From: Klebsiella phage vB_KpM_FBKp24
Direction: 5' to 3' (one strand)
DNA length: 64,000 bases
Sequence record: MW394391.1
Shown here: piece by piece, positions 5,682 to 51,666 of the stretch
Numbering within the stretch: position 1 is the first letter of the stretch
Layout: every line of letters begins with the position of its first letter
Position numbers and translations under genes: made by a program
The notes under the pieces: model-generated
What the model was told of the DNA's origin: nothing
Database searches by the model: none
Seen by the model: the letters and a program-made list of their open reading frames with translations, nothing else

Positions 5682-5694
5682 GTGATATAGGTGT
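5682..5694 (-). promoter_or_regulatory. GTGATATAGGTGT copy of the recurrent intergenic motif (candidate phage promoter element)
   Basis: Motif copy ~47 nt upstream of the minus-strand leader ATG. It is also 48 nt upstream of the plus-strand tailspike ATG. Confidence 0.35.
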
Positions 5695-5737
5695 CAAATT
5701 AATTGGATTCCTCGTTAAAAGAGATGGCAAGTTTCCT

Positions 5738-8416
5738 ATGACTTTTGACCTATGTGATAAGGTAAATGAAATGAGTGATTTCGGGAATAAGATCAGCGAA
5801 TTAAATCCGTTGAGCGCAGGAAATATGGCGGGGGAAATTCCGTTAAGTTTAACACTGTCTAGCGGTACTTTGGCAACCAATAAAATCACGTTGAGCCAAC
5901 TCAGAGATCTTTTTGACTTCGATAGCGCATACAGCAGCGTAGAAGAAGGGATCGCTGCGACGGTAGAAAACCAAATGTTCTACGTTTACGTAGACAATAA
6001 TAAATTATCGGTCAATGAATACATCCGAACTAGCATTGGTGCGAACGCAGTCATCGGTAAAAGCGGCACTAAGAAAATTATTTATATTCCTGAACTACTG
6101 AAGCACGTCAAAGTGCAAGTAGAGAGTTTTACTGCACTGCGGGAGTTTAAACCGTGGTGGGAAGGTCAGGTAGTTTATCTGAAAGGGTACTACTCGGAGA
6201 GTACATCGGGGAGTGGTGACTTCATTGGTCATTTAGGAACAGCAACGGATGACGGCGGTGTCATCGCAGCGGGGTCGGGGTATTACTGGGAACGAAATGA
6301 CAGTAAGAATGTTATAGATGCTCAATGGTTTGGCGTTACAGCCGATGGCACCAATAAAGGGACTGAAATTAGTCGTGCACTCGATTTCATCTCTGTTCGT
6401 GGTGGGGAATTAAAATTCCCTAATGGCGAAATAAACTGGGGTACGCTCAGGAAAGTTTTTAACTATTCCGCCACTTTGAAACCGTTCACTTTATCAGGTA
6501 ACGGAGACAGCACCGTTTTTACGTTTGACGACGTCCCGCCCCCTACGCTACAAACTGGCGCTAATTGGGTTAAAGAATCACCGTTAATATCTTTTATCGG
6601 AACTAGCGGCGACAAATTCATTCCGAAGGTAGCCCTGAAGAATTTCTCTATGGACTATTCGCGACAGAAGAATAAAGGCGGGACGGATTTAACTACGCTC
6701 TCTGTGACACATCCTACTCCATATTCACTCGGGGTCTGGGGAATTTATTTCTTCTATGCCGATAGTCCGACGATTGAAAACGTGACCCTAAACAATATTT
6801 ACGGTGATGGGGTCATCATTAGGAAGTCATTCGAGCCGACAGTAAGAAACTGTCAGTTTTATAATGTTTCCGCTGGGAATATTATTGCGAGAACCGATGG
6901 TAACATGGCATCGGATTCGAACGGTGGGGCTATTTTCTTTTGGGCTTGCGTTGGTGGTCTTATCGATAATGTAACTGCTTGGAACCAACGGACTTATCAA
7001 GTTCATGTTAACTCAACCGATAACGGTACGGACGTATTTAACACATTGTGCGGTTACATTGGTATCTGGACAGAGTACCCGTGGGATCAAAACATGACAG
7101 CTAGTTCGCCAGAGACCGCACCGCCAAGAATGACTTCTATAATTTCATCAAGTAATTTGACAAACAATTGGGACAACGAAGCCAAGGGATGTACTATTCG
7201 AAATTGTACTGTTTATGGATATACTATCGGGATTAAATCGGAAGGATTTAGCGAAACCAATATTGTCAACAATATGGTTCTTAATTGCTACCTTCCTATT
7301 TTCCCGGCCAGTACTCGTGCAACTGTAGCCGATAATTTTACAGATATGCTCTACTGCGACAACCGGACTTGTCCGCAAGGTGGTTATCAAAGTATCCGTG
7401 GTCATCTTGTCTGCCATAACTACAGTACCGTCGATGACGGTGCGCGCAGAGGCGTTGAGTTCAGAGGTAATAAGTGCTATTGCGTATCGTACCCTGCTTT
7501 TAGGAGTAACCGGTCAGGATCGCTCTTCGTCGGCAATATGTTCAGGTTCGCACGTGGCGCGGCTGTTGCGATCGATACGACTATTAGTACTCTTGTTAAA
7601 GGCGTCATTGTTAGAGATAACACGTTTTTCTTTGATAGTACAATCAGCAGTACCGTGACTTCTAATATTTCTTATCATGACGGGCTTGTATTCAGTGGCA
7701 ACCGATTTGTCAATAAGTCGACCTCGTTAGTTACGATCGCATTTAGAAATAATTCAAAGAATGTTAAAATAGAAAATAACTTCTTTGAGGGTTGGTTTTT
7801 TGTAGCGTTACAGTGTACGGGTATTTTCGATAAGAACACTGTAGATGTTCAAAATCAACCGATTGCTAACAGTTATCATTTAGGTAATGTTTTTCAGGCC
7901 ACGGCGAGGGCGGTAATATCAAGGAATGAATTCAGAATTAACTCTTCTGCGACTAGTTCGCAAATTGTAGTTTCTTCAGATAATAGCGTATTTGAACGTA
8001 ATATTATACATGTACAAAATACGGGAACACCGACCTTGAATGGTTTAGTTTCATCTGAGTCCAGCGGAGCAAACCAAATTTTTGAAGGTAATTTGGTTAC
8101 GCAGAACCCGTTTAATACCGCCCTGTTCTACTTGAATACCCCGCACGCACCAACGTTTATCGGAAATGTCAATAGCGGTAATCTGATTTATATTTTCGGC
8201 ACCACTATTTATTCTCCTATAACTCTCGAACGTAACAGATGCACAGGGATATTTACTGCCCTAGCAACAGAAAAAAATACAGGTGTCAATCTTTCGTCTA
8301 AAGTGACGCCCTATGTTGGAATGAAGATGTATTACATTCTCCCTAATGCTAATGGAGCAGAAGGGGAAATATATACTGCGCAAGGATGGAAAACATTTGG
8401 TAGTATTACTGCTTAA
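5738..8416 (+). CDS. tailspike/depolymerase with a right-handed beta-helix (892 aa)
   Basis: Beta-helix-type repeats (NIYGDGVIIRKS, NCTVYGYTIGIKS) and an N-terminal module homologous to the second tailspike. Confidence 0.7.
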   Translation: MTFDLCDKVNEMSDFGNKISELNPLSAGNMAGEIPLSLTLSSGTLATNKITLSQLRDLFDFDSAYSSVEEGIAATVENQMFYVYVDNNKLSVNEYIRTSIGANAVIGKSGTKKIIYIPELLKHVKVQVESFTALREFKPWWEGQVVYLKGYYSESTSGSGDFIGHLGTATDDGGVIAAGSGYYWERNDSKNVIDAQWFGVTADGTNKGTEISRALDFISVRGGELKFPNGEINWGTLRKVFNYSATLKPFTLSGNGDSTVFTFDDVPPPTLQTGANWVKESPLISFIGTSGDKFIPKVALKNFSMDYSRQKNKGGTDLTTLSVTHPTPYSLGVWGIYFFYADSPTIENVTLNNIYGDGVIIRKSFEPTVRNCQFYNVSAGNIIARTDGNMASDSNGGAIFFWACVGGLIDNVTAWNQRTYQVHVNSTDNGTDVFNTLCGYIGIWTEYPWDQNMTASSPETAPPRMTSIISSSNLTNNWDNEAKGCTIRNCTVYGYTIGIKSEGFSETNIVNNMVLNCYLPIFPASTRATVADNFTDMLYCDNRTCPQGGYQSIRGHLVCHNYSTVDDGARRGVEFRGNKCYCVSYPAFRSNRSGSLFVGNMFRFARGAAVAIDTTISTLVKGVIVRDNTFFFDSTISSTVTSNISYHDGLVFSGNRFVNKSTSLVTIAFRNNSKNVKIENNFFEGWFFVALQCTGIFDKNTVDVQNQPIANSYHLGNVFQATARAVISRNEFRINSSATSSQIVVSSDNSVFERNIIHVQNTGTPTLNGLVSSESSGANQIFEGNLVTQNPFNTALFYLNTPHAPTFIGNVNSGNLIYIFGTTIYSPITLERNRCTGIFTALATEKNTGVNLSSKVTPYVGMKMYYILPNANGAEGEIYTAQGWKTFGSITA

Positions 8417-8426
8417 AATAAATAAA

Positions 8427-8456
8427 GGGTGGGCCATTTGGCCCACCCTTTATTTT
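8427..8456. terminator. Bidirectional rho-independent terminator
   Basis: GGGTGGGCC-ATTT-GGCCCACCC followed by TTTATTTT, between convergent genes. Confidence 0.8.
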
Positions 8457-8710
8457 CTCTTTAATGCCACCACTACCAGACCCAACACCGGATCCGCAGA
8501 ATCAGTGCGTACTAACCCGTAACGAGGAAGTTCAATTACTAGTTGAGTGATACGATGTTTTTCTTGTTCACTTAACGCACTTAAATCCAAAGCGTGAAAA
8601 TCCTCTACCACCTTAACATCGTCATCGGAGTAAGGGAAAGACCATTCGAGTTTGTTCTGTTCTTTATTCCCCGGTAAATAAAGGACATGCACCTTTTTGT
8701 ATACGTTCAT
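8450..8710 (-). CDS. hypothetical protein (86 aa)
   Basis: ORF. Confidence 0.45.
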   Translation of the reverse strand: MNVYKKVHVLYLPGNKEQNKLEWSFPYSDDDVKVVEDFHALDLSALSEQEKHRITQLVIELPRYGLVRTDSADPVLGLVVVALKRK

Positions 8711-9111
8711 TCTCTTACTACCTTTTTAAACTCGGAAACAAATTCATGTTCAGGAATCGTCACTGCTTCACGTACTAACGAAACGTAAGTCCCTACCACA
8801 GACCATTGGACAGGGAAATTGTTAGTCATTACGCGGTTAAACCCTTGAAAAAGGCGTTGGGTCTTGATGCAAAAATAATAGGCGTGAGGATCAATGTCTT
8901 TAACGTCCGCTAAACGTAAATTTCTTTCTGGTCCGTACGTTAATTGATACAGGTCGTCAGGTATTGCTTTTACTTTCTTTTCCACCAAAGAAAACAAATA
9001 ATGCAACTTACAACCCCCGTCGAAATCTCCACTGCGTAAGTATAAGAAAATATCTCCAAGTGTATTATCCTTGACAAATACCGCGGGGTCATTGCGTTTA
9101 CTTTTAAACAT
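8707..9111 (-). CDS. hypothetical protein (134 aa)
   Basis: AAGGAG lies 8 nt upstream of ATG 9111. Confidence 0.55.
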   Translation of the reverse strand: MFKSKRNDPAVFVKDNTLGDIFLYLRSGDFDGGCKLHYLFSLVEKKVKAIPDDLYQLTYGPERNLRLADVKDIDPHAYYFCIKTQRLFQGFNRVMTNNFPVQWSVVGTYVSLVREAVTIPEHEFVSEFKKVVRE

Positions 9112-9134
9112 ACGCCATGCTCCTTTTAATAGAA

Positions 9135-9160
9135 TGGAGAGTGGTTTTTACCACTCTCCA
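9135..9160 (-). terminator. stem-loop / terminator after the phoH-like gene
   Basis: TGGAGAGTGG-TTTTTA-CCACTCTCCA. Confidence 0.45.
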
Positions 9161-9165
9161 TATAT

Positions 9166-9987
9166 TCATTCTGCGTAGATCGCTAAGGCAGTTTGGCAAA
9201 TCGGAGAACGTACACAATCGGCATCGGTAAAGTTAATTACCGGGATACCTAACTGTTTACGCTCTATTCGTTCAAGTAGGTCTGCTAACCCCGACTTGAC
9301 ACCTTTAGGAAGATCGCACTGTTTTAAGTCACCATTAATGATGACCGTGGAATTGTCACCGATACGCGTCAGGAAGAGACGCATCTGATTTACCGTGACG
9401 TTTTGGGCTTCGTCAAGGATAACCACAGCATCGTCGAAAGTTCGTCCGCGCAAGAAACTGAAAGGGGCTACTTCAATTTTCTCGATTTCGGGGCGAAGGC
9501 AATATTGGAGGAAACTCGCACCCATTCTCCGGCGGAGAATATCATAGACCGGTCGGAAGTAAGGAAGGAATTTCTCGTACTGTGTCCCTGGAAGGAAACC
9601 CATCTCTTCTTCCGCTGTCAGCATCGGGCGAGTCACGACGATTTTTTCGACGTTTTTCTCACTGAGTTGATCGACCGCATAAACTGTAGCTAAAAGCGTT
9701 TTCCCTGAACCTGCGGAGCCCGTAGCGATGACGATGTCTTTACTGGCAATCGCATCCATATAAAGACCTTGATTGACGTTCCTGGCTTCAATCGGCGTAC
9801 GATCCCGTTTTTCTTTTTCCATCCCGATCTTGGTAATATCCTGAGAGTTACTTCTGCCGTCGAATCGAATTAAGTCTGCACTTTCTTCGCTCGATAAGGA
9901 CCGTTGCTGGTTCAGTCTACGGCGTGATTCGCGGCGAACTTCACGGTCTAACTTAGCATTACTCTTTTGACGACTCATCAATACCAC
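9166..9987 (-). CDS. phoH: PhoH-like ATPase
   Basis: Walker A ATGSAGSGKT. VILDEAQN, and PhoH-family length and architecture. Confidence 0.85.
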   Translation of the reverse strand: MVLMSRQKSNAKLDREVRRESRRRLNQQRSLSSEESADLIRFDGRSNSQDITKIGMEKEKRDRTPIEARNVNQGLYMDAIASKDIVIATGSAGSGKTLLATVYAVDQLSEKNVEKIVVTRPMLTAEEEMGFLPGTQYEKFLPYFRPVYDILRRRMGASFLQYCLRPEIEKIEVAPFSFLRGRTFDDAVVILDEAQNVTVNQMRLFLTRIGDNSTVIINGDLKQCDLPKGVKSGLADLLERIERKQLGIPVINFTDADCVRSPICQTALAIYAE

Positions 9988-10072
9988 CTTAGCAGATTGT
10001 AAAGAGGCTCACCTTACCATTCCGAGGAGAGCTTTTTCAGAGAAACCCTTTTCTGATTCATAAAAACCTTAA

Positions 10073-10420
10073 CTAAGAATCTTTTCTGATCAGAGGTTTA
10101 AATCCCCAGCTAAAACCGGAGAACAATCTAATCCAAAATGGCGCATCGGGTTTGTATCGGTAAAACAATTTTATCCCCGGTAACCACCCGTAATAACGTA
10201 CGGTTTTAAACCAATTAGTCCTTACCTCTGTAAAGACAGAACTTAACCAGAAACGTATTGTTTCTTTGTGTGGTTCTAATTCAGGGCTGTCGACTAGAAG
10301 TTTGTTGAAAAAATCAGTGAAGAGTAAATTGGGATCGGAATGTGTAAACTCGAGCCGTTTATTAATCGTCGGCTGATCTTCTCCCTCGATCAAGATTTCG
10401 AGAACGTGTTTCTTATCCAT
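10073..10420 (-). CDS. hypothetical protein (115 aa)
   Basis: ORF. Confidence 0.45.
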   Translation of the reverse strand: MDKKHVLEILIEGEDQPTINKRLEFTHSDPNLLFTDFFNKLLVDSPELEPHKETIRFWLSSVFTEVRTNWFKTVRYYGWLPGIKLFYRYKPDAPFWIRLFSGFSWGFKPLIRKDS

Positions 10421-10467
10421 CGTTAGGAACCCCTCGAGGCAAAAAAAGAAAATACATAGTGAAGGTT

Positions 10468-10490
10468 TGGCTCAGGGATTCCCTGAGCCA
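10468..10490 (-). terminator. hairpin terminator
   Basis: TGGCTCAGGGA / TCCCTGAGCCA. An A-run lies upstream on the plus strand. Confidence 0.45.
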
Positions 10491-10498
10491 AATAACGA

Positions 10499-10867
10499 TT
10501 ACGTTTTACTGATCACGCTAAACTGTCCTGCTAGTACTCTGTTATCGTAGAGATACTTTTTAGTACGGGCATTGTAAAGACGTACTTGATAAACGTCGGT
10601 GTTAGTATAATGCTTCAAAACGAAGATGATACGGTTACCGCACTCATACGCCGCCGCAGAAAAAACTAACCCATCGTCATCAATTTCTTCCGGCAAATTG
10701 ATACCAAACTCACAGACGTACTTCTTCCCGTCAACGTACGCTACCGTTCTTTTTTCGCCGATAGTAAAGTTACTTTTATCGTCTTTAAATGAAACGGTGG
10801 TCGCCAACGCCAGAGAAGGTATCAACAGAACAATAACTGCCATAATAAATTTTTTCATCATCAACAT
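10499..10867 (-). CDS. secreted/periplasmic protein with a signal peptide (122 aa)
   Basis: N-terminus MLMMKKFIMAVIVLLIPSLALATT. Confidence 0.5.
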   Translation of the reverse strand: MLMMKKFIMAVIVLLIPSLALATTVSFKDDKSNFTIGEKRTVAYVDGKKYVCEFGINLPEEIDDDGLVFSAAAYECGNRIIFVLKHYTNTDVYQVRLYNARTKKYLYDNRVLAGQFSVISKT

Positions 10868-10873
10868 TCCAAA

Positions 10874-11173
10874 TTAGTGATAAGTACCAGATAACCAGTA
10901 TAGACACTCTTCTTGCTGAGCGACTTCCAGTTTCATTTTCATTTCCGTGAAGCATTTGATGTCATCACGGTGCTGAGAAACAACCGACGGGTCGAATTGT
11001 TCACCCAGTTCGACTAGCATCTCCAGCGACGCGATAGTCCGTGAGAGTAGTTCAATCGTTTTGTTCAGTAACAGCGGCCTGTCAACCAGATCGTGCTCGT
11101 CTTTAATGTTGAACAGCGCATGGTAAACGTTAGTGAGCTCAGTGAATGTCAAATCTACGTTCTGGGTTTTCAT
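10874..11173 (-). CDS. hypothetical protein (99 aa)
   Basis: ORF. Confidence 0.45.
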   Translation of the reverse strand: MKTQNVDLTFTELTNVYHALFNIKDEHDLVDRPLLLNKTIELLSRTIASLEMLVELGEQFDPSVVSQHRDDIKCFTEMKMKLEVAQQEECLYWLSGTYH

Positions 11174-11224
11174 CGTGTACTCCTTTTTACGTTAAGGTGA
11201 AATTAACTAACGGTTTACGTGCTG

Positions 11225-11692
11225 TTATTTGGCGAGAATAGATTTACCTTTATATTCCAACATCAGCCCAGCTAAACCGATCCGTGTTTCCGCTTCCGTT
11301 ACCATTGCCTCTAAAGCAGACATCAGAGTCCGTTCTTTCGCTTTCAAGAATACCGGCTCGAAACCATCCGAGAATACATTATCGAGACTGATGCGTACCC
11401 AAACTTCACCGGTATCTTTCATGGCCACTTCCATTTCCCCGAAATCTTCACAGCGGTTCGGCGCCAAGTCTTTAAGAAACAGAATTGTTTTTCCGCACTC
11501 GTCTCCGACGATCCAGTTACTTTCGTCGAAATTCGTTAATTCTTCAAGGAGTTCGCCGGCATGATAAACAATGATAGCGTTAATACTTTCACGCATTTCA
11601 GTCACTGAGTCAGCGAATTTCTTTTCGCGTTCTTCACGAGTGTAGTTCAGAGAAGAGAAGACATTAGCAACAGCATCTTTGATCAGAGACAT
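11225..11692 (-). CDS. hypothetical protein (155 aa)
   Basis: ORF. Confidence 0.5.
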   Translation of the reverse strand: MSLIKDAVANVFSSLNYTREEREKKFADSVTEMRESINAIIVYHAGELLEELTNFDESNWIVGDECGKTILFLKDLAPNRCEDFGEMEVAMKDTGEVWVRISLDNVFSDGFEPVFLKAKERTLMSALEAMVTEAETRIGLAGLMLEYKGKSILAK

Positions 11693-11827
11693 GTTAGGAT
11701 TCCTTAATTGGTTTAGTTAAACGGAAAGGTCTTTCCTTTCCTTATTCACTCTGGCTATATATACTTTAAAAAAAGTGCATTTCGATTCTTATGAATTTTC
11801 AACTGACTAATAAAGGCTGAGCGCTTT

Positions 11828-13288
11828 ATGGACGTAATTATCGATGGTAAACGTTATATCCCGGAAGAACACGCTTCCCGTAAAATCGGTATCGCGATCT
11901 CCACGCGTAATCGACACGACGTACTAAAGAAAACCCTCGCTGAGCACGCCAAGTTCCTCCCCCCTAATGCGGTAATCTATATTGTCGATGATGGTTCGGA
12001 TACCCCGGTACAAGCTCCTGATTGGGCCGCTGTTCATCGTCATGAAAAAAGTGAAGGGATAGTAGCCGTTAAGAATACATCGCTTCGCCTTTTGATTGAC
12101 GCCGGCTGCGAGCATTTGTATCTGTGGGACGACGACGCCTACCCGATTGCTGATAACTGGTGGGTTCCGTATATGTTGTCACCAGAACCCCATCTCGGAT
12201 ATCAGTTTAAAGACCTAGCGGGAAAAAGAAAAATAAATGACGTTATTGAAGTGTATAATGACGGGAAACATTTTGCACTTTCAGGGCAGCGTGGAGTTAT
12301 GCTCTATTACCACAAATCGGCGATTGATAAAGTCGGTGGTTTCGATCCAATTTATCAACGAGGGATGTATGAGCACGTCGACCTTGCCCTGCGTATTCAT
12401 AACGCAGGTTTAACCACATTCCCGTTTGGTGACGTCGTCGGAAGTAACCGACTTATCCATTCCATGGACGAATACGAAGAGGTTGCGCGGTCTGTTCCGC
12501 CAGCGGATCGTCAACAGCAGGTGGAAAGAAACGTTAAGATTTATACGGCGCGCCGTAAGAGCCAGTACGCCGGTTATGCGCCTTATCGCAAAGCCCGTCG
12601 GGTAGTCGCCACCGCGCTATTAACCGCTTGTACTGACCCACAACGTCAGAATACTCACATGGCAGCAAGTAGTGCTCTACTACAGACGTGGGCAGAGAGT
12701 ATTAAAGGTGCAGAGAAGATTGTTTTTGCAGATCAGCTATCCGATATGTCTGGTGTGACAATAATCAAAGTACCAGAGGTAAGAAATCTTTCCCCGTATT
12801 TTCTCCGCTGGCTGCACATTTACCAGTGGCTGCGTGATAACCCAGATGTTACCCAAATATGGTGTACAGACGGCACCGATGTCAAAATGCTCAAAGAACC
12901 TTGGGATGAAATGGAACCGGGGAAAGTTTATGTCGGAAATGAACATACGACATACGCCAACCCTTGGTTTGACAAAGTCAATTACCAGAAGTATTTGAAA
13001 AACTTTATTACCGCCAACAAAAATGAACAGGTGGTCAACGCAGGGTTAATCGGCGGTTCCAGAGAAGACGTTATGCAACTGGCTCACGGAATGATTGCCC
13101 AAGTGTGGAAAATGAAATCCGAGATCTTCTGGCGAGAAGAACTCGCCCCTGAGTCAGTGACGGACATGGTTATGTTCGGTATCGAAGCGAAGAAGTTTGG
13201 CGATCGATTAGTGCACGGCCCTATTGTCAACACCGTTTTTAAAGGTAACGAACACGGTAAAGATATCGCTTGGTTTGCGCATAAATGA
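11828..13288 (+). CDS. glycosyltransferase with an N-terminal GT-A (family 2-like) domain (486 aa)
   Basis: IAISTRNR..VIYIVDDGSD, a GT2 nucleotide-sugar binding/DXD region. AAGG lies upstream of the ATG. Confidence 0.6.
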   Translation: MDVIIDGKRYIPEEHASRKIGIAISTRNRHDVLKKTLAEHAKFLPPNAVIYIVDDGSDTPVQAPDWAAVHRHEKSEGIVAVKNTSLRLLIDAGCEHLYLWDDDAYPIADNWWVPYMLSPEPHLGYQFKDLAGKRKINDVIEVYNDGKHFALSGQRGVMLYYHKSAIDKVGGFDPIYQRGMYEHVDLALRIHNAGLTTFPFGDVVGSNRLIHSMDEYEEVARSVPPADRQQQVERNVKIYTARRKSQYAGYAPYRKARRVVATALLTACTDPQRQNTHMAASSALLQTWAESIKGAEKIVFADQLSDMSGVTIIKVPEVRNLSPYFLRWLHIYQWLRDNPDVTQIWCTDGTDVKMLKEPWDEMEPGKVYVGNEHTTYANPWFDKVNYQKYLKNFITANKNEQVVNAGLIGGSREDVMQLAHGMIAQVWKMKSEIFWREELAPESVTDMVMFGIEAKKFGDRLVHGPIVNTVFKGNEHGKDIAWFAHK

Positions 13289-20154: not shown

Positions 20155-20170
20155 TAAACCTCCAAAAAAG

Positions 20171-20194
20171 AAAAGGGGCGATTTCGCCCCTTTT
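20171..20194 (-). terminator. rho-independent terminator
   Basis: AAAAGGGGCGA-TT-TCGCCCCTTTT, flanked by A/T runs. Confidence 0.7.
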
Positions 20195-20198
20195 CTAA

Positions 20199-21771: not shown

Positions 21772-22050
21772 TTACCGGAAGAAGAAAGAGGGCGATATTA
21801 ATTCATTGGTTGATAGCATATATCTTTTATGTTTCAAAAATGTTATTTCACCAGCTTCATTCTTTGTAACAGAAATAAAACCCCTTTCAACGACGTATTT
21901 AAATAAGAGATCAAAATCTTCTTTGTTTAACAAGCGAAGCGAAGGGATTTTAAGTTTTAATGTATCGTAGGTAGATCCTGCTGGGTATTTTTCTAAGAAA
22001 ATATTAAGAGAATTGAAAGAGTCGTAAAGATTTGATTTTAAGCAGGTCAT
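21772..22050 (-). CDS. hypothetical protein (92 aa), a stand-alone copy of the N-domain of the upstream gene
   Basis: Sequence similarity to the N-terminus of the 504-aa protein. Confidence 0.45.
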   Translation of the reverse strand: MTCLKSNLYDSFNSLNIFLEKYPAGSTYDTLKLKIPSLRLLNKEDFDLLFKYVVERGFISVTKNEAGEITFLKHKRYMLSTNELISPSFFFR

Positions 22051-22081
22051 TTAATCTACTCCTTGCGTGTTAGAAACGGAG

Positions 22082-22450
22082 TTATTTAACCAACGTTTGA
22101 AGAGACGCAATGATTGCTTTTATTTCTTCATTATCGAAGACAATGTAGGTTGCCTTTTCTTCGTAGAAACCATCGCGGGTGGTACATTCTAAATCCATCG
22201 GGATATTAGAAGAGATACCATTTACCCGAGTCTCTTTCTGTGCACGCTCGTCGATGTCCATCAACGTTTCCGATGAGTCTGCATCAATATCGACGAGCGC
22301 TTTGTACACGAAATCATTTGTCATGGATTCGTATTTAATGTTCAATGAGTGGATAGCCGGCTCTAACAACGCTTCCTGATACGCGGGGCCAAAAATAAAC
22401 AGCGTTCCCGAAGGTAATTTGAGGAATTCTTCTTTGTTGTAAAGCTTCAT
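22082..22450 (-). CDS. hypothetical protein (122 aa; start re-assigned to MKLYNKEEF)
   Basis: GGAGAAATCAA-ATG RBS. The listed start is a TTG. Confidence 0.45.
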   Translation of the reverse strand: MKLYNKEEFLKLPSGTLFIFGPAYQEALLEPAIHSLNIKYESMTNDFVYKALVDIDADSSETLMDIDERAQKETRVNGISSNIPMDLECTTRDGFYEEKATYIVFDNEEIKAIIASLQTLVK

Positions 22451-22514
22451 TTGATTTCTCCTATAAAAGACAACGTAAATTAGAATCGAATTTGATTCAT
22501 CTGTCAATATTACA

Positions 22515-22545
22515 TTCTGGTGATATATACATCAAAAATTATGCA
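22515..22545 (-). promoter_or_regulatory. sigma70-like promoter (TTGATG-17-TAATAT) overlapping a TATATATCAC motif variant
   Basis: Read on the minus strand. It lies ~70 nt upstream of ATG 22450. Confidence 0.35.
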
Positions 22546-22548
22546 TAA

Positions 22549-22578
22549 TTCCTTACAGCGCCTGAACGCTGTAAGGAA
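22549..22578 (-). terminator. terminator after the NAD module
   Basis: 12-bp stem TTCCTTACAGCG / CGCTGTAAGGAA. Confidence 0.5.
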
Positions 22579-25796: not shown

Positions 25797-25840
25797 TGTG
25801 AGTTACCTTTCAGTGAGTTCAAAATAAAAAACAGAAACGT

Positions 25841-25850
25841 GATAATAGAG
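25841..25850 (-). promoter_or_regulatory. GTGATAATAG motif variant upstream of frd
   Basis: ~45 nt upstream of frd ATG 25796. The spacing matches the other motif copies. Confidence 0.3.
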
Positions 25851-25977
25851 AGAGACGAATGTCTACCTGCCTAGTTTTAAAACTAATTCCTGAATATATC
25901 GGCGTAGGATAGGTTCTACTATAGTTTGATTCTTGTGACAATAACCTCACTACTAGCCCGGTTGGGCAGGAGATGAA

Positions 25978-30587: not shown

Positions 30588-31394
30588 TTACATTCCTGTA
30601 ACGATTGCTTTCAACCAAGCCTCGACAATGGCCTGATTTTTAGGGTAAAGCGCCACGTTACTAAAACCTTCTTCCGTAATCGTAATCGCGTAACGTTCAT
30701 CGTACTGTGGCAAACTTAATGCGGGAGTCACGGTGAAATACCGCGCCGGTTTAAACGACCCGTTAGAATTTAACCATTTAGTCTGGTCAAAAACGTAATC
30801 AATCTCTGCCCGCATTGAAACCCTGGCTTTGATCCCGCCGAACAGCGCATGGTATTGTTCGGTTATTTTTGGTTTCAGTTGCTGCCCCGGTGAGAGATTC
30901 TCGGTATTAAATACGGGTACGATAATCCCTCTTTCCGTTACGTACTCTTCAATGACTTCGAAGAACGGCGAGAGGGTCTTCAGATTCAAGGGGTAGCGAT
31001 CATCGCACTGAAACAAACCGTACGGGCGAATATCGATGTTGGGAGTGCGCAGTAAATACTCGTAGATGAATTCCCCAAACCAACGCATGATTCGCCCTTC
31101 CGGCGAACAATCGAACCACGCGCCCTTACCAGGTGTGGAACAGGTAAAACGGACTACAACTTTTCCCTCCACCGGCCTTTCAACAATTGATAACCAATGA
31201 TAATCGTTATTTTTGGTATAAGTAAACATCGGGTAAAGTTTAGCGGCGGGATGATCGAAAAGTGACTTTTTAGGAATGACGTTAACAGTCGTACCTTCGC
31301 CATCCTTTTCCGCTAAATCAACGATCATCTCTGGAACAAGGGGGTGAACAGCGTTTTGAGTAACCACTGATTTTTCGTTTGGTAAAATAATCAT
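30588..31394 (-). CDS. hypothetical protein (268 aa)
   Basis: ORF. Confidence 0.55.
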   Translation of the reverse strand: MIILPNEKSVVTQNAVHPLVPEMIVDLAEKDGEGTTVNVIPKKSLFDHPAAKLYPMFTYTKNNDYHWLSIVERPVEGKVVVRFTCSTPGKGAWFDCSPEGRIMRWFGEFIYEYLLRTPNIDIRPYGLFQCDDRYPLNLKTLSPFFEVIEEYVTERGIIVPVFNTENLSPGQQLKPKITEQYHALFGGIKARVSMRAEIDYVFDQTKWLNSNGSFKPARYFTVTPALSLPQYDERYAITITEEGFSNVALYPKNQAIVEAWLKAIVTGM

Positions 31395-31470
31395 CGTGCA
31401 GTTTCCTTCTTCGTGACCAGTTAGTGGCCCGTTACGTTAGATAAGAGAATTTTAGATTCTCAGGTATAGA

Positions 31471-31510
31471 GTGTAGAGACTAGGTCTCTACACTTAAGTG
31501 ATATAGGCGT
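31471..31510 (-). promoter_or_regulatory. 10-bp-stem hairpin (GTGTAGAGAC/GTCTCTACAC) plus a GTGATATAGGCGT motif copy
   Basis: Motif at 31498-31510. It lies ~100 nt upstream of ATG 31394. Confidence 0.35.
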
Positions 31511-32040
31511 TAATTAACTTGGGTCTCGGTATTCTTCACGTAAATTCCCGTTTCAACAAATAACGAAAACCCTACGGCTGAAATCTCAACCTTCTCATTA
31601 CTTTCAGCAGTAACTTTTGCGCACATGTTGGTGTTTTCAGTATTGATCTCGCCAGTTACGCGAATAGTGGCTTTTTCAACGATCCCAGGTATAGCGACTT
31701 CCGCTTCGCTTTTCAAATCCAGAATCCGGAAATTGTAGTTCTCGACTTGGATAGGTGTGAATGTAGGGTAAGGGACAATTACATACCCTGCTGCCACTAG
31801 CTCATCTGCGTCATTGTATCGATTATAATGGACAAGTACCTTGTCTACATGGATCGCGGTAATCTCCCGGCGACACATTTCCTCCATTTCCATTCTTGGG
31901 AAAGATAAGAAAAAGATATTAAACCCTTCCTTAGAATCTGCTTTAAAGAAGATATCTTTCCCTGTTTCAAGAATCCCGACGAAATGATGGTGGTTTTCTC
32001 TGATGATTTTGAACTGCATTTTCTTAATGTCAGTAAACAT
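31510..32040 (-). CDS. hypothetical protein (176 aa)
   Basis: ORF. Confidence 0.5.
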   Translation of the reverse strand: MFTDIKKMQFKIIRENHHHFVGILETGKDIFFKADSKEGFNIFFLSFPRMEMEEMCRREITAIHVDKVLVHYNRYNDADELVAAGYVIVPYPTFTPIQVENYNFRILDLKSEAEVAIPGIVEKATIRVTGEINTENTNMCAKVTAESNEKVEISAVGFSLFVETGIYVKNTETQVN

Positions 32041-32876: not shown

Positions 32877-32906
32877 ACCGACTCCTTATTAAACAAAATA
32901 AAAATA

Positions 32907-32930
32907 TAGGGACAAACGTCCCTATATTTC
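32907..32930 (-). terminator. rho-independent terminator
   Basis: ATATAGGGAC-AAAC-GTCCCTATAT, followed by TTTTTATTTTGTTT on the minus strand. Confidence 0.8.
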
Positions 32931-42588: not shown

Positions 42589-42651
42589 GATATTTTTCCT
42601 TTTGTTGATTTCAGAACAATTAAAGAGTGAATGTTTTTCTACTTCATTAAG

Positions 42652-42660
42652 GTGATATAG
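42652..42660 (-). promoter_or_regulatory. GTGATATAG motif copy
   Basis: On the minus strand it sits ~30 nt after the terminator and ~65 nt upstream of ATG 42588. Confidence 0.35.
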
Positions 42661-42690
42661 ACTTTAAATGTAATCGAAACAAAAAATAAA

Positions 42691-42716
42691 AGAGGGGCAT
42701 CTGCCCCTCTTTTATA
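42691..42716 (-). terminator. rho-independent terminator
   Basis: AGAGGGGC-ATCT-GCCCCTCT flanked by A/T runs. Confidence 0.75.
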
Positions 42717-42724: not shown

Positions 42725-44029
42725 TTAGTTCAGTTTCCTGCGCTCCTGTACGACAATCTCCCCTTCTTTCAGGTAGATTTTCTTACGCGGTTTACGCAGG
42801 GCTTTCGCCAGCGAGATGTTTTCTGAAGGCGTGACTTCGAAAGCCGGGAGTCCAGCAGCAGCGCGAGCCTCAATGGCTTCCATCGGTGTAAGCAGACGGA
42901 AATGTAATGGTTCCCCCATGTAATGACGACCATCACGCATTAACGCCGGTTCGATCTGAGTTTTGTCAGTCAGGTTAGTGGTGATGATCATTTTACGTGT
43001 AATAGCGCTTCCTACGCCATCGGTTTCGTTCAGCAGTTCAGCCATCATTTCGTTACCATGGCTACGTGGTGCGATCAGAAGATCACCGTCTTCTACGATA
43101 ATCACCGGGAATGCGGGTTCTTTCCTTTTTACCCCAATTTCTACAGTGGGAAGATTAGGTTGAGTTGCCATCTGGTCAAATATTTTACGCTCTTTAAACA
43201 AAACATCGCGGCCTGCGCCGTTAATGACCTGCGCTTTCTCCATGTAATTGTCACTGAAGTTGAAGATAGAAGAAATGAAATCTTTGTATTCGATCACTTC
43301 CTTTTTCTTCACGTAGATCGGCATGAGATTCAGCGCTGTGGCCGCAGAAGAAATAGCCGTGGATTTCCCGGTACCGGGTTCGCCCATCAGGATCAGTACT
43401 GTTTCATCGGAAGCGATAAAGTCTTCGATGAGGTTAACAATCCCACCGTCAAGGTAGGGGTAAAATGCGTTGTGAGTATGGCCAGAGTGCTGAATTTCCT
43501 TTTTCTTCAACCCCAATCCCTCACCAAACATATTTTTCTCAATGACGGTCTCGTAATAGTAACGACTGTCGTCTTTTGGCGGCTCCGTCGTGTCAAGTTT
43601 GATGTTTTCACGGACAGCCGCCCATAAGGCGTCATAGAGATCTTTTGACAGAATACCAGAGAATTGCAGTAGCGTCTTCTCCCCGCCAAGCACACGAAGA
43701 AAACCGACAGGGCGATTGTAGCGGTCCAACGCGATAAACTGGTCGTCGTCGTACTGAAAGAAACCGTGTTTTTCCAGGAATACGGAAACCCACTGTGTTT
43801 CCGAGAAGTAGTGGATAGACGCGTTTATGTAGTCGCTGGAATCAAGACCAAAAATTGGTAATTGATTGGCGGCCAGAAAGTGACGCACCATATTTTTTGG
43901 AGAGAGCTCATCATTATCGTTGCCGACCAATGCAGCGAATGCATCATAAGCCTCAGCGAATGAATCAAAAACGTCATTCAGTAATTTGTGAGAGCGAGTG
44001 AGATTTGCTACAGCATTAGAATAAGACAT
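42725..44029 (-). CDS. AAA+ ATPase (BCS1-like family)
   Basis: Walker A GEPGTGKST and second region of homology ITTN..EPALMRDGR. Confidence 0.75.
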   Translation of the reverse strand: MSYSNAVANLTRSHKLLNDVFDSFAEAYDAFAALVGNDNDELSPKNMVRHFLAANQLPIFGLDSSDYINASIHYFSETQWVSVFLEKHGFFQYDDDQFIALDRYNRPVGFLRVLGGEKTLLQFSGILSKDLYDALWAAVRENIKLDTTEPPKDDSRYYYETVIEKNMFGEGLGLKKKEIQHSGHTHNAFYPYLDGGIVNLIEDFIASDETVLILMGEPGTGKSTAISSAATALNLMPIYVKKKEVIEYKDFISSIFNFSDNYMEKAQVINGAGRDVLFKERKIFDQMATQPNLPTVEIGVKRKEPAFPVIIVEDGDLLIAPRSHGNEMMAELLNETDGVGSAITRKMIITTNLTDKTQIEPALMRDGRHYMGEPLHFRLLTPMEAIEARAAAGLPAFEVTPSENISLAKALRKPRKKIYLKEGEIVVQERRKLN

Positions 44030-44085
44030 TTCGATTCCTCATTAAGTTAGTGAAAAATGAACTTTATGTTCGTTGTATCAATGCA

Positions 44086-44097
44086 GTGATATATAAG
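44086..44097 (-). promoter_or_regulatory. GTGATATATAAG motif copy
   Basis: After the terminator and ~55 nt upstream of ATG 44029. Confidence 0.35.
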
Positions 44098-44119
44098 CAA
44101 AAATATTTTCAAAATATAA

Positions 44120-46952: not shown

Positions 46953-46954
46953 TT

Positions 46955-48199
46955 TTACCCCTTCACGCAGACTATTTGTTTCAACGTAAAAAGAACTTCC
47001 ACGAGATCGTCTTGCGAACGCATTACATCGTCAATGTTCTTATACGCTTTTGGTGTTTCATCGATGACATCTTTGTCTTTGCGGCATTCGACGCCTTCAG
47101 TGTCACGTATTTGATCTTCTACTGTGAAGACACGTTTTGCTTCTCCACGGGACATCAGACGACCGGCGCCATGGGAACACGAGCAGAATGATTCTGAATT
47201 CCCTTTCCCGCGTACCACAAATGTTTTTGCACCCATCGACCCGGGAATAATAGCGAGATCGGTTGTCCTGGCTCTGACCGCCCCTTTACGGGTAACAAGG
47301 ACGTTTTGATCAAAGTGATTTTCCAGCGCAACGTAGTTATGATGACAATTGATGGCGGTCACTTTATTCTCGAAGGGTTTTTGTAAAACCTTATGCAGCG
47401 CAATCAGTGTTGCATTGAGCATAATGGCGCGGTTTACAGCCGCGAAGTCCTGTGCCCATTGCACAGCTTCTAGGTAGTCTTTGTAGTAGACCGACCCTTC
47501 CGGTAAATAAGCCAGGTCGTCATCAACTAAATGGATAAAGAAACGCGCCATTTCTTCCTTTGCTTTCTCAATGAAGAAACGACCAATTGCGTTACCTATA
47601 CCGCGAGAACCGGAATGAATTACTATCCAAAGTGAGTCATTCTGGTCGAGTGATAATTCAACAAAATGATTGCCGCTACCCAACGTTCCTGCGTGTGAAG
47701 CAAAACGGTTCGCGTTACGTAACAGAGTAGGGTATTTATCAGTGATGAACTTCAAGCGATTCTCTAATGAGACTAACTCGGCTTTAAGCTGTAGCGTTAA
47801 GTTTTGAGGGTCATTATTACCCCACGCTCCCCGGTCGTTCGGCCCACCGTTATCGGTACGGCCATGGGGGATGAGTTGTTCAATCGCGCTACGAATACCG
47901 GAAAGATCTGTTGGTAAGTCCTCGCGTTTTAACGATGTCTGTTGACCCACCAACCCGCAACCAATGTCAACACCAAGCGCAGCAGGAATAATGGCCCCCT
48001 TTGTTGCAATGACAGAACCTATTGTCGCACCCATCCCCCAGTGGACATCGGGCATGACTGCGATATGCTTGAAGATAAACGGTAAGGTAGTGAGGTTATG
48101 AAGTTGTTTTTCTGCCTGCTCTTCCACTGGGACAAATTTTGTCCAAGATTTAATGTTGACTTTGTCACCTTTAATAAAAACAATATTTGAATCTGACAT
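46955..48199 (-). CDS. rtcB: RNA-splicing ligase RtcB
   Basis: MPDVHWGMGATIGSV. NCHHNYVALENH (conserved His-rich active site). ~414 aa. Confidence 0.9.
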   Translation of the reverse strand: MSDSNIVFIKGDKVNIKSWTKFVPVEEQAEKQLHNLTTLPFIFKHIAVMPDVHWGMGATIGSVIATKGAIIPAALGVDIGCGLVGQQTSLKREDLPTDLSGIRSAIEQLIPHGRTDNGGPNDRGAWGNNDPQNLTLQLKAELVSLENRLKFITDKYPTLLRNANRFASHAGTLGSGNHFVELSLDQNDSLWIVIHSGSRGIGNAIGRFFIEKAKEEMARFFIHLVDDDLAYLPEGSVYYKDYLEAVQWAQDFAAVNRAIMLNATLIALHKVLQKPFENKVTAINCHHNYVALENHFDQNVLVTRKGAVRARTTDLAIIPGSMGAKTFVVRGKGNSESFCSCSHGAGRLMSRGEAKRVFTVEDQIRDTEGVECRKDKDVIDETPKAYKNIDDVMRSQDDLVEVLFTLKQIVCVKG

Positions 48200-48213
48200 T
48201 TTTATTTCCTCAG

Positions 48214-48933
48214 TTATTTAACCATGTTACGGCATTGTTCCAGAGTGAAACCTTTCTCCATGAGATCGGCCACCATGATTTCATGTTGCATTTTATACTG
48301 CTCAAACAACACTTTTATCTCAACAACAGTACCCGCGCTGTCTACTAGTTTAACCGTGAAAGATTCTTCGTTGACGGCGTACGTATTGGTTACAAAGAAC
48401 TCCTGTAACGCTTTTAAAATCAACCCCATTAGAAAGAAGTTGGGTAAATCCAGAAACAGATCGTGATACTCCGTAAGTCCCTTGCCCCAACGATAATAAA
48501 TATCAAGGACATCTACGTTTGGCCCAGAAAAAGATATCGGACCACCTTCGTTTTTCTTTATCGTGATCACGTTCTGTTTAAGTATAACCTCCTTAAAGAA
48601 AATCTCATTAAACAAAGCGCGGTCGTAATGGTAGGGAAGAATTTTAATTTGGAAGCAGGATTCCAAATCCTCTCCGGGTAATTCGTTGACCATAGGGTAC
48701 ATGGCACGTTCCCAGTAACTATTTTTATCGTCACCTACTTCTTTTACGGTGTCGAGATAGGAAAGCCAACCCCGTAGAATGGAGTCAAACACGGGATTAG
48801 CGAAGAAGTCGGGGACAGTTGTTACTATCTTCTCCAACCTGTCAAGGAACGCCCCAGTCATCTCAAGTGGGTCAGTGTGTTCTCGATTCTCGTCCGGATC
48901 AACATCTGTTTGCGCTAATAAATTAAAGTCCAT
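48214..48933 (-). CDS. hypothetical protein (239 aa)
   Basis: ORF. Confidence 0.55.
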   Translation of the reverse strand: MDFNLLAQTDVDPDENREHTDPLEMTGAFLDRLEKIVTTVPDFFANPVFDSILRGWLSYLDTVKEVGDDKNSYWERAMYPMVNELPGEDLESCFQIKILPYHYDRALFNEIFFKEVILKQNVITIKKNEGGPISFSGPNVDVLDIYYRWGKGLTEYHDLFLDLPNFFLMGLILKALQEFFVTNTYAVNEESFTVKLVDSAGTVVEIKVLFEQYKMQHEIMVADLMEKGFTLEQCRNMVK

Positions 48934-48951
48934 CCCTTCCGCCTTTTTTAA

Positions 48952-49515
48952 TTAGAACCAATCCTCAATGACCCTTTCCAGGTCACCTACGCTACTACTC
49001 AACCATTTCGTTTCGTCCGTCCATTCTGTCCAAGGTTGAACTTCGTCTAACAAAGAACAACCTTTACGCACTTTGATAACGGAAAGATCGAGATTAAAAA
49101 CAATCTCGTGTTGAGTCAGTTGCAAATAGAAGATCCCCGTCTGTGATTCTTCATCCCAGTAGGTCCCGCTGGAGTAGGGTAAGGTAGAGCCCTCTTCATT
49201 TTTTCCTTGAACCCCTTCATCCCAAAATCGTTTTACCCATGGACCAGTTTCATCGAGATCTCTTTCAGCTCTGTCAGAAAAATCGATAAAGGTAAACTGC
49301 CACCGAGAAATGAGTTTTTTCATTTTCTCAACGAGGACTTTTCGGGTCAGGGGCTCTTCTGCAAATGTAGGCGAATTAAAGAGTGGTTCTTCTTTCCGTT
49401 CCATTTGCTCACGAATTTTCCCAGTGAGATCCCAGCGCTCGGTATGCTCCGCCAATTCACTTAGAATCTCGTCCACTACTTCACGAGTGAGTACAACCAC
49501 TTTATCGTTAAACAT
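48952..49515 (-). CDS. hypothetical protein (187 aa)
   Basis: ORF. Confidence 0.5.
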   Translation of the reverse strand: MFNDKVVVLTREVVDEILSELAEHTERWDLTGKIREQMERKEEPLFNSPTFAEEPLTRKVLVEKMKKLISRWQFTFIDFSDRAERDLDETGPWVKRFWDEGVQGKNEEGSTLPYSSGTYWDEESQTGIFYLQLTQHEIVFNLDLSVIKVRKGCSLLDEVQPWTEWTDETKWLSSSVGDLERVIEDWF

Positions 49516-49517
49516 CT

Positions 49518-49820
49518 TTAGAGCACCTTATTAATCAAATACAGTTTCACCCGGACAATAACTTCATGACAATAGTCGTTATCAGAGATCGCTTCTAAAG
49601 CAGAACATTCGATAGCAGTAAGAATCCTTCTTGGTTGCCACCCGCCTGCCAGCGCCGCATCAATGAATCCCGTCCAATCAATAGTGAATCCTGCGTTAAA
49701 TATTTTACCTACTGCGATATCTAACGGCAAACCGTGAGTAGCCACCAGGAAGAACAATTTATCTCCCGAGAACAAATTATTTTTCATTTCGCAATTTCCC
49801 TCCGATTGCATCGATTTCAT
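49518..49820 (-). CDS. hypothetical protein (100 aa)
   Basis: ORF. Confidence 0.4.
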   Translation of the reverse strand: MKSMQSEGNCEMKNNLFSGDKLFFLVATHGLPLDIAVGKIFNAGFTIDWTGFIDAALAGGWQPRRILTAIECSALEAISDNDYCHEVIVRVKLYLINKVL

Positions 49821-50304
49821 CCATCAAGGGCTTCAGTGCATAAAGGCCCTCAATCGCTTCTAACGAATGATCTGCCCGTAACCGAGACACACTCTCACGA
49901 TGACGTTCAAACCACTCAGCGTCCGTTTCAGGGACTTCTAAGATCTCCCACCAACGTGCGGTAGATTTCTTTTTCCGACCGAACCGTTTCCCTTCGCGAA
50001 GCTCTACTTCTTGAATAACAAAACGACCTCTCCCGGTGACTACTTCCTCGAGGTCACTGATGGGTGAATATTCTTCGGTGACGTTACCTGCCCACATCTC
50101 CTTGAAATTGATTTCCCAACGGCATCGACTGCCCCAAGCAAAATAAATCCCAGTAGTTTCGATTAAAATAACTTTGCCATTTTCAGAGGTAAATGATGCC
50201 GCCGGGGAAACGCCTCGCCGGAACCAAGTGCGGCTACCAATGATTAACATTTTACCGTGTTCACTGGAGACAAACGAGGCTAAGATCATTATTTTATTCT
50301 CCAC
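49777..50304 (-). CDS. hypothetical protein (175 aa)
   Basis: ORF. Confidence 0.5.
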   Translation of the reverse strand: MENKIMILASFVSSEHGKMLIIGSRTWFRRGVSPAASFTSENGKVILIETTGIYFAWGSRCRWEINFKEMWAGNVTEEYSPISDLEEVVTGRGRFVIQEVELREGKRFGRKKKSTARWWEILEVPETDAEWFERHRESVSRLRADHSLEAIEGLYALKPLMDEIDAIGGKLRNEK

Positions 50305-50663
50305 ATTCTGCGGGCTATACGTCGCTCTGCCGGACTCGTTGGCTCATGACTGCCAGTATTGTAAACGTCGAATAAATAATCACCTGTACCTTCTTCTATT
50401 AAAATCTTTCTTCCTGAGCGAAAAAATTCTGCGCGAGATTTTCGCTCATGGTCGTAAACACTTTCTATTTCCTCTACCGAGACACCAAAAACCGCACCCA
50501 GTTCTTCTAAACGCAAACCGGAGGAAATTGCTTTTTCAATGTCGACCCCGATGAGCCTCTCCGAAATTTCGAAGCGCTCCTGTCTGTGCCGGTCCATCAT
50601 TTCATGTTGCGCCTTAACAAGTCGACCTAAACTACTGTCCCAAAAATCGTCGTAGTTTGACAT
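50289..50663 (-). CDS. hypothetical protein (start re-assigned to MSNYDDFWD)
   Basis: The internal ATG removes the overlap with the upstream gene. Confidence 0.45.
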   Translation of the reverse strand: MSNYDDFWDSSLGRLVKAQHEMMDRHRQERFEISERLIGVDIEKAISSGLRLEELGAVFGVSVEEIESVYDHERKSRAEFFRSGRKILIEEGTGDYLFDVYNTGSHEPTSPAERRIARRMWRIK

Positions 50664-50664
50664 T

Positions 50665-51069
50665 TTATTCTCCGGTATCCATTGCGCCTTGGATGAGATT
50701 ATCGAGTTCCACAAATTCTTCAAATGTGGTATTTAAGTCCATAGACCCTGACATTTGGTAGTTACGGAAATTATGATACCGCTGCTCTTGATCGGTAAGA
50801 GGAGTGTATTCACCTCTCCCCTTTTTAATTTCCATTTTATAAATTTTTCGGCGATTAAGGCTCGTCAAAATACTGTCTTGAAGAGCAGTCAGACGTTGGA
50901 TGGTGATGGTTTTATCTGTTACCCGAAGCCGTGTGTCTTGTAAAGAAGATAAATTGTCACCGTTCGGCGTCACGATAATTAAATTAGGACGAGAGGCACA
51001 AAACTCACGGATTCTTTTCAGGAGACTTGTCAAAGACTCATCATTCATTTTGTTTTCCTCAGGTGCCAT
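50665..51069 (-). CDS. hypothetical protein (134 aa)
   Basis: ORF. Confidence 0.5.
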   Translation of the reverse strand: MAPEENKMNDESLTSLLKRIREFCASRPNLIIVTPNGDNLSSLQDTRLRVTDKTITIQRLTALQDSILTSLNRRKIYKMEIKKGRGEYTPLTDQEQRYHNFRNYQMSGSMDLNTTFEEFVELDNLIQGAMDTGE

Positions 51070-51290
51070 TGTACAATGATTTCTTCGTAAAGTTTATTTG
51101 CTGATTCTTGGTCGTGAAAATGAAACCACTCGAAATTGCTGGGGTTGGAATAATAAAGTACCCCGATGGACGGTTTAGATTCACCCCAGAGCGGGAAATG
51201 TTTTTGAATAGGTGGCGTGACATGTACCAATTCATCGAAATTGACGACACGGCCATTGATCACAATTTTCTTTAGGTTAGTATCGGCCAT
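51045..51290 (-). CDS. hypothetical protein (82 aa; start MADTNLKK)
   Basis: AAGGGGGT RBS 8 nt upstream of ATG 51290. Confidence 0.5.
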   Translation of the reverse strand: MADTNLKKIVINGRVVNFDELVHVTPPIQKHFPLWGESKPSIGVLYYSNPSNFEWFHFHDQESANKLYEEIIVQWHLRKTK

Positions 51291-51318
51291 GTTATGAAAC
51301 CCCCTTGTTAAGAGTGAA

Positions 51319-51657
51319 ATGAATATGAGACTGGACGACGGTATTCTAACTTTCTTTTGCCCGGGTTGCGAGACCACCCATTCTGTTTCGGTCGAACCAA
51401 CTGACCCTTGTTACTGGACGTGGAATGGGTCGTTAGAGAAACCAACGTTATCTCCGAGTGTTTTGACCCGCTCCGGTCATTACGTGGACGGTAGTCATGG
51501 TTGCTGGTGTAACTATTATACCGCGCACCCGGAAGAAGAAGTTGTCTTTAAGTGTTATCGCTGCCACAGCTTTATCCGCGACGGCAATATTGAATTCCTT
51601 TCTGACTGCAGCCATAAATTGGCAGGGCAGACTGTTCCTTTAGATCCATTAAAGTGA
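51319..51657 (+). CDS. Cys-rich (zinc-ribbon-like) protein on the plus strand (112 aa)
   Basis: CPGC, CWC and CYRCH motifs. A plus-oriented terminator hairpin follows. Confidence 0.4.
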   Translation: MNMRLDDGILTFFCPGCETTHSVSVEPTDPCYWTWNGSLEKPTLSPSVLTRSGHYVDGSHGCWCNYYTAHPEEEVVFKCYRCHSFIRDGNIEFLSDCSHKLAGQTVPLDPLK

Positions 51658-51666
51658 TATAGGCGT
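51654..51666 (-). promoter_or_regulatory. GTGATATAGGCGT motif copy
   Basis: Identical 15-mer to 31496-31510. Confidence 0.3.

Follow-up and report, generated by a model that had tools for sequence, protein, structure and literature searches.

A recurrent intergenic element was analysed in a 64,000-nucleotide (nt) stretch of the genome of Klebsiella phage vB_KpM_FBKp24 (record MW394391.1), referred to below as the window. The element, which is built around the octamer TATATCAC, is probably the early-promoter consensus of a phiKZ-like Klebsiella jumbo phage, and the RNA polymerase carried in the phage particle would be the enzyme that reads it. Direct observations cover the statistics of the element, where it lies and in which orientation, how it is conserved, and its likeness to the signals of the phiKZ family. 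The initial annotation had described a phage-specific, promoter-like signal of non-sigma-70 type, with which our results agree, and had placed it in the middle or late class, read by a redirected polymerase, which they do not support. An early class served by an injected virion polymerase is likely the better reading, because the motif precedes the genes of the shell protein and of the non-virion polymerase, which are needed before the non-virion enzyme exists, and because its skeleton is common to phiKZ sites and to the published early consensuses of the phiKZ family. A redirected host polymerase is disfavoured because a near-identical relative encodes phiKZ-type virion and non-virion polymerases. 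This relative, Klebsiella phage vB_KpM_Centimanus (Centimanus; 299,730 bp), shows ~96% identity to the window; MJ359, KpYy_2_45 (KpYy), KpLz-2_45 and others are more distant, and the DNA alignment of the window with MJ359 and KpYy covers only about one-tenth of a 20-kb query.

Occurrence and placement of the motif

The motif sequences listed in the initial annotation were all found at their positions, and the 15-mer AAGTGATATAGGCGT is indeed identical at 31496-31510 and 51652-51666. Sites are named here by the first core position on the minus strand (e.g. 5689, 42659). When the literal 10-mer GTGATATAGG was counted alone with at most one mismatch, no enrichment was seen (4 found versus 2.4 expected), whereas the oriented core was significant: TATATCAC is present in six copies on the minus strand of the window and in none on the plus strand (1.37 expected), and none of 100 shuffled sequences reached six (Table 1). 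All six copies extend to TATATCACNNNANTG, i.e. TATATCAC-N3-A-N-TG. Applied to the window, the 38-nt matrix described below recovered the same six copies and a seventh, variant one on the minus strand that had been overlooked, with the core TATATAGC at 11754-11761. A relaxed copy proposed near 22521 carries the TATATCAC core at 22520-22527 and is a regular member of the family. No known RNA family was found by Rfam in the whole window.

The placement of the copies is intergenic, as had been proposed: 6/6 lie in gaps between minus-strand genes, and such DNA makes up ~6% of the window according to a crude gene call. Two caveats apply, since the core at 51654-51661 overlaps the stop codon of the plus-strand gene 51319..51657, and the open reading frame (ORF) 31510..32040 extends with its 3' end into the upstream half of the 31505 site. 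The distance between core and start codon had been given as 45-75 nt and is actually 64-121 nt, with predicted leaders of 50-107 nt. Copies had also been said usually to follow a terminator. A stem of at least 10 bp is present within 75 nt upstream of 4/7 window sites and 13/27 Centimanus sites, compared to 4% of random windows (the threshold was raised to 10 bp, as stems of at least 6 bp occur in 57% of random windows and are uninformative). However, only two of the stems in the window are terminators composed of a hairpin plus a T-run, both on the minus strand, and the statement is accurate only in an approximate sense. Among the genes named as served by the motif, the AAA+ ATPase gene 42725..44029 and the gene 5281..5568 do have a copy upstream, whereas frd has no family member in front of it.

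Genome-wide, Centimanus contains 23 copies of TATATCAC on the minus strand and two on the plus strand, and the A.TG extension is present in 19 of the 23. Alignment of 21 Centimanus sites yielded the 38-nt consensus gT.TC.A-N5-TTT.A.G.(a/c)TATATCAC(t/c).TA.TGaA, in which TATATCAC is invariant, TTT.A.G and T.TC.A are near-invariant, and the T and G located 6-7 nt past the core are found in 21/21 sites. If the invariant G is numbered +1, T.TC.A occupies positions -34 to -29, TTT.A.G -23 to -17 and TATATCAC -14 to -7, followed by A.TG; downstream of the G the sequence is not conserved between copies. A matrix derived from these 21 sites gave 27 matches of at least 12 bits in Centimanus, all of them on the minus strand, while shuffled genomes gave 0-2 (~0.2 by chance). 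According to the record annotation, every one of the 27 is upstream of a co-oriented start codon, at a distance of 23-141 nt and in one case 355 nt. An unbiased count of 8-mers in the intergenic DNA of Centimanus returned, as the top two signals, this motif and the GAGAGGG/CCCTCTC terminator stems.

Among the genes served in Centimanus, the shell gene, with the gp55 homologue behind it, is preceded by site 153303, while site 145009 stands before the gp68 homologue and site 139853 before the gp71-74 homologues. The genes for the major head, terminase and tail sheath have none of the 27 matches immediately in front of them, and no match precedes a plus-strand gene. MJ359 and KpYy keep the motif at syntenic gaps, where it forms a conserved block between diverged flanks, most clearly at 44093. 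In the same alignments, the terminator hairpins upstream of the motif are kept in structure and differ in sequence. A scan of IMG/VR with a 16-base skeleton gave 63 matches, mostly single ones on unrelated contigs, and strong full-length matches were limited to the KpYy genome and a few jumbo-size contigs. Seven contigs (L029, L031, L043, L054, L073, L075 and L081) score 28-33 bits against the 38-nt model, and several of them are of jumbo size (132-272 kb). This suggests that the TATATCAC variant is in use by further relatives that have not been sequenced in culture.

Relation to the early promoters of phiKZ-like phages

The record of Centimanus annotates a nuclear shell protein, the tubulin PhuZ and seven split 'RNA polymerase beta subunit' genes. 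PHROG profiles matched the shell protein (4e-44) and PhuZ (9e-81); the profile was needed for the former, as the Centimanus shell protein had no blastp match to phiKZ gp54 at 1e-3. For the non-virion polymerase, blastp against phiKZ paired Centimanus proteins 00153 with gp55, 00145 with gp68, 00140 with gp71 and gp73, and 00139 with gp74; for the virion polymerase, 00088 was paired with gp80 (E values for gp55, gp68, gp71/73, gp74 and gp80 from 1e-30 to 1e-74). Both polymerase sets, with split beta/beta' genes, are therefore present in this relative, and the gene order of its polymerase/shell block is that of phiKZ gp50-gp75. From the shell, PhuZ and polymerase matches together with this gene order, the phage studied here can be placed, judging by its relative, among the phiKZ-like jumbo phages that form a nucleus and encode two multisubunit RNA polymerases, one virion and one non-virion. 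In phiKZ, the virion RNA polymerase (gp80/gp149/gp178/gp180) transcribes the early promoters.

Inspection of the phiKZ genome revealed sites of the form aaaaaTTTgAGATcTATAT(T/C)A(C/T)taa..TG before gp53, gp54 (shell), gp68, gp70.1/71 and gp76, which contain the published phiKZ early consensus TATATTAC (PMC7058600) and share with our motif the skeleton TTT-N6-TATAT(C/T)A(C/T)-N5-TG. The syntenic positions agree (before the shell gene, gp68 and gp71-74), the copy numbers are comparable (32 in phiKZ, PMC10914365; 27 in Centimanus), and in phiKZ a terminator is likewise followed by a promoter. There are differences as well: the upstream part reads T.TC.A-N5-TTT here, whereas phiKZ has an A-run before TTT; phiKZ belongs to another genus and infects another host, with protein identity of only ~23-34% to Centimanus; and its early promoters are a characterised class, while the ones described here are known from sequence comparison.

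The published consensuses of other phages agree with our motif, too. That of N1M2, TBYAWWWWWTTTCARRYAKATATTATYWAAGTGWA (PMC7058600), when written as TBYA-W5-TTT-CARRYA-TATATTAT-YWAAGTG-WA, aligns position by position with T(C)(C/G)A-N5-TTT-.A.Gt(c/a)-TATATCAC-y.TA.TG-aA, and N1M2 has 31 copies. The consensus of 201phi2-1 is ...TTTRARR_BTATATTACDWHDGTG (PMC7058600). Predicted early promoters of OBP, N1M2 and 201phi2-1 display the same three-part conservation at -30, -20 and -10 (PMC7058600 Table 2; PMC11512511), as do those of phiKZ (PMC11512511). These phages, which belong to other genera and infect Pseudomonas or K. aerogenes, differ from ours in the core (ATTAT or TTAC versus ATCAC here) and at several flanking positions. 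In a more distant comparison, the AR9 early promoter is AAATATATATTAT-(6N)-G+1, and phiKZ and phiR1-37 transcripts start 6 nt after the element; the AR9 and phiR1-37 early promoters are read by a virion-packaged multisubunit polymerase (PMC5312081). Like here, AR9 and phiR1-37 have a conserved AT-rich element at about -10 and a G 6 nt downstream, which is the start there and the predicted start here. Unlike here, their DNA contains uracil, they form no phage nucleus and their AT-rich element is longer. To our knowledge, they are not described as having upstream elements of the TC.A or TTT.A.G kind.

In every jumbo phage that encodes RNA polymerases, a motif of this kind can be recognised in front of the early operons, and it was confirmed as an early promoter wherever transcripts were profiled (PMC7598289). 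The features expected of an early promoter of the phiKZ family (Chimalliviridae), namely two polymerase sets (in Centimanus), conservation at -10, -20 and -30, similarity to the consensuses and placement upstream of co-oriented genes, were all found. By analogy with phiKZ, the genes served would be early ones (PMC4666361); the non-virion polymerase subunits of phiKZ are all early gene products (PMC4666361). A literature search for TATATCAC returned only unrelated primer matches; we found no published promoter for this group of Klebsiella phages, and a paper on the genus that was consulted makes no mention of promoters.

Alternative readings of the signal

The variant copy 11761 belongs to a sub-family with the core TATATA/TGC, which is represented in Centimanus by sites 172321, 193978 and 216857 (and 198059). 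In the window (11690-11830) it forms a conserved promoter-plus-leader cassette of ~85 nt, which was aligned with Centimanus 172321, 193978 and 216857 and reads ..AATCGAAATGCAGTTTTTTT.A.GTATATAT.GC.A.AGTGAA..GGAAAG....CTTTYC...TAACTAAAC. These four copies are all located in divergent gaps beside a plus-strand gene. We give a small chance to the possibility that the family holds two specificity classes instead of one. The TATATA/TGC sub-family could form a temporal class of its own, or it could serve as a two-way control module by which minus-strand early units and the plus-strand genes are coupled. As for the main core, its invariant C could mark a changed base-specific contact in the virion polymerase of this clade.

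It is quite unlikely that the phage-encoded non-virion RNA polymerase reads the motif as a middle or late promoter. The A.TG at the predicted start does resemble the phiKZ late signal T-3 A T G+1 (PMC4666361), and a few sites are found in regions that hold virion genes. However, the middle and late promoters of phiKZ are short and weakly conserved, while its early ones have a well-conserved extended element (PMC4666361, PMC7598289), and the signal described here spans 38 nt and is nearly invariant. Its skeleton is the one shared with the phiKZ sites that bear the published phiKZ core; moreover, it precedes the genes of the non-virion enzyme itself and is missing directly before the head, terminase, tail sheath and plus-strand genes listed above. 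The phiKZ late promoter as such, a short TATG at the start with no conserved upstream element (PMC4666361), was rejected as a model, since here A.TG is accompanied by 34 nt of conserved upstream sequence.

A recurrent conserved element near the 5' ends of genes, in several copies followed by conserved structured leaders, might also be the binding site of a phage regulator or a signal acting at the RNA level (a processing site or leader element) and not a promoter itself. We regard this as very unlikely because the element is asymmetric, without a dyad, because it is always co-oriented with the downstream gene, with spacing fixed over 38 nt, and because the sequence past the G is not conserved between copies; the conservation falls mostly on the 5' side of the point at which transcription begins in related phages.

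Finally, a variant host sigma-70 promoter (TATATC as -10, t.gT.T as -35), used by the host polymerase with or without a phage factor, is extremely improbable: although the geometry is possible, with TATATC agreeing with TATAAT at 4/6 positions, TTG 17 nt upstream in some copies (e.g. 42659) and the predicted G 8 nt after the hexamer, the last T of the -10 element, which is essential, is an invariant C here, the upstream blocks that are most conserved (TC.A, TTT.A.G) would be located in the spacer, and phiKZ development is independent of the host polymerase (PMC4666361, PMC10914365). In agreement with the initial annotation, which had noted the poor fit, a scan of 35 kb around the sites for TTGACA-like and TATAAT-like hexamers 16-18 nt apart (the latter requiring A as its second and T as its sixth base) called 0/7 sites, and sigma-70-like matches were at chance level in two of the three scanned segments and ~2.4 standard deviations above it in the third.

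Several observations weigh against an early promoter of the virion polymerase. The core has an invariant C (TATATCAC) where phiKZ mostly has T (TATATTAC), and the window copies 11761 and 44093 score far lower than the others. Some sites precede clusters with annotated virion proteins, e.g. Centimanus 11364. With ~90% of genes on the minus strand, the all-minus-strand count is weak evidence beyond gene orientation. The window has no polymerase gene, so the polymerase argument relies on the 96%-identical Centimanus, and homology is the basis on which the start, the early timing and the enzyme are assigned. In 201phi2-1, not every gene of a non-virion polymerase subunit has an early promoter close by (PMC11512511), and the position of the motif before polymerase genes is therefore supportive and not a proof.

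If the motif is an early promoter of the virion polymerase, this multisubunit enzyme would be injected together with the DNA and would recognise the 38-nt signal with no need for the host RNA polymerase or for newly made protein. Transcription would begin 6 nt downstream of the core, at the predicted G, and would cover the minus-strand early operons, among them those that encode the shell protein and the non-virion polymerase subunits; this second enzyme would later transcribe the middle and late genes. Roughly half of all copies are directly behind a hairpin; hence each such gap, with a hairpin followed by a promoter, would close one transcription unit and open the next.

Individual sites and their surroundings

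The copies found in the window are listed in Table 1, together with the rejected copy upstream of frd.

Table 1. Copies of the motif in the window and the non-member upstream of frd
Feature	Position	Strand	Core	Predicted +1 G	Score (bits)	Context
Promoter copy 1 (5689)	5673..5710	-	TATATCAC, 5689-5682	5675	42.4	Divergent gap beside plus-strand gene 5738..8416; leader ~107 nt, then gene 5281..5568
Variant promoter copy (11761)	11745..11782	-	TATATAGC, 11761-11754	11747	22.5	55-nt leader, then gene 11225..11692
Promoter copy (22527)	22511..22548	-	22527-22520	22513	36.8	After hairpin 22549-22578 at the end of the frd / ribose-phosphate pyrophosphokinase / nicotinamide phosphoribosyltransferase operon; 63-nt leader to ATG at 22450
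Non-member, 'relaxed' copy	25841..25850	-	CTATTATCAC		<10	Upstream of frd
Promoter copy (31505)	31489..31526	-	31505-31498	31491	32.2	Syntenic in MJ359 and KpYy; 97-nt strongly conserved leader with three hairpins, to ATG at 31394
Promoter copy, best consensus match (42659)	42643..42680	-	42659-42652	42645	46.4	Directly behind terminator 42715-42686; 57-nt leader to ATG 42588; kept in MJ359 and KpYy
Promoter copy, weaker upstream half (44093)	44077..44114	-	44093-44086	44079	22.4	Behind terminator 44144-44120; 50-nt leader to ATG 44029 of 434-residue ATPase-like gene
Promoter copy (51661)	51645..51682	-	51661-51654	51647	41.2	Upstream half within hairpin 51667-51693

An identical counterpart of site 5689 is present at Centimanus 210073, and the sites of MJ359 and KpYy that are syntenic with 22527 have the core TATATCTC. 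After promoter 22527, the window has two extra small genes (21772-22507) in comparison with Centimanus. The predicted minus-strand leader 31395-31491 is conserved across lineages more than the neighbouring coding sequence; in its predicted fold, the first of the three hairpins begins exactly at the predicted +1 G, and one compensatory pair change was seen (no Rfam match). The orthologues of the 44093 site score 33 bits in MJ359 and 28.6 bits in KpYy, in flanks that can no longer be aligned. The ATPase-like gene 42725..44029, which has this copy as its own promoter, is kept in MJ359 and KpYy and replaced in Centimanus.

Promoter 51661 is separated from the next minus-strand gene (51045..51377) by the plus-strand ORF 51319..51657, a real gene that matches phrog_3362 (1.5e-32) and has its TGA stop inside the promoter core. 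In MJ359 and KpYy, the orthologue of this promoter is only ~40 nt from its gene. The ORF looks like a gene inserted into a leader, through which promoter 51661 would read antisense, and this arrangement hints that promoter-proximal leaders serve as insertion sites for new genes. The hairpin 51667-51693 could terminate both strands.

The copy at 25841-25850, which the initial annotation had counted as a relaxed member of the family, was rejected on its score with the 38-nt matrix; in addition, ATTATCAC is neither recurrent nor strand-biased genome-wide. The region nevertheless contains a different element, ATTATCACGT...TTTTA.T.TGAA.TCA (25797-25860, minus strand), which the window, Centimanus and MJ359 all keep in front of frd, between diverged flanks. 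It does not belong to the main family and might represent a different promoter class. A further candidate for a second promoter class, TTTTATTTT, occurs eight times in the window, always in intergenic DNA; it was rejected and treated as a terminator tail, as it is directly behind hairpins and too near ribosome-binding sites. Terminator hairpins in the window consist of GAGGGG/CCCCTC-type stems with a TTTTATTTT tail (e.g. 42686-42715, 32901-32930, 62150-62190 and 20169-20196), and recall the conserved terminator motif of phiKZ, a hairpin followed by TTAT (PMC10914365). Outside the window, the Centimanus record annotates at 121400-121483, in a tRNA cluster, a tRNA with the anticodon tta ('tRNA-Stop'), possibly a suppressor tRNA.

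The signal is of a known type and new for this phage group; it confirms a known rule and opens no new one. [quoted passage not shown] Seven such units are marked in the window, most of them with no known function. The natural variation among the phages, with C versus T in the core and a different -30 element, would be useful for the study of promoter recognition by virion multisubunit polymerases that have no sigma factor.

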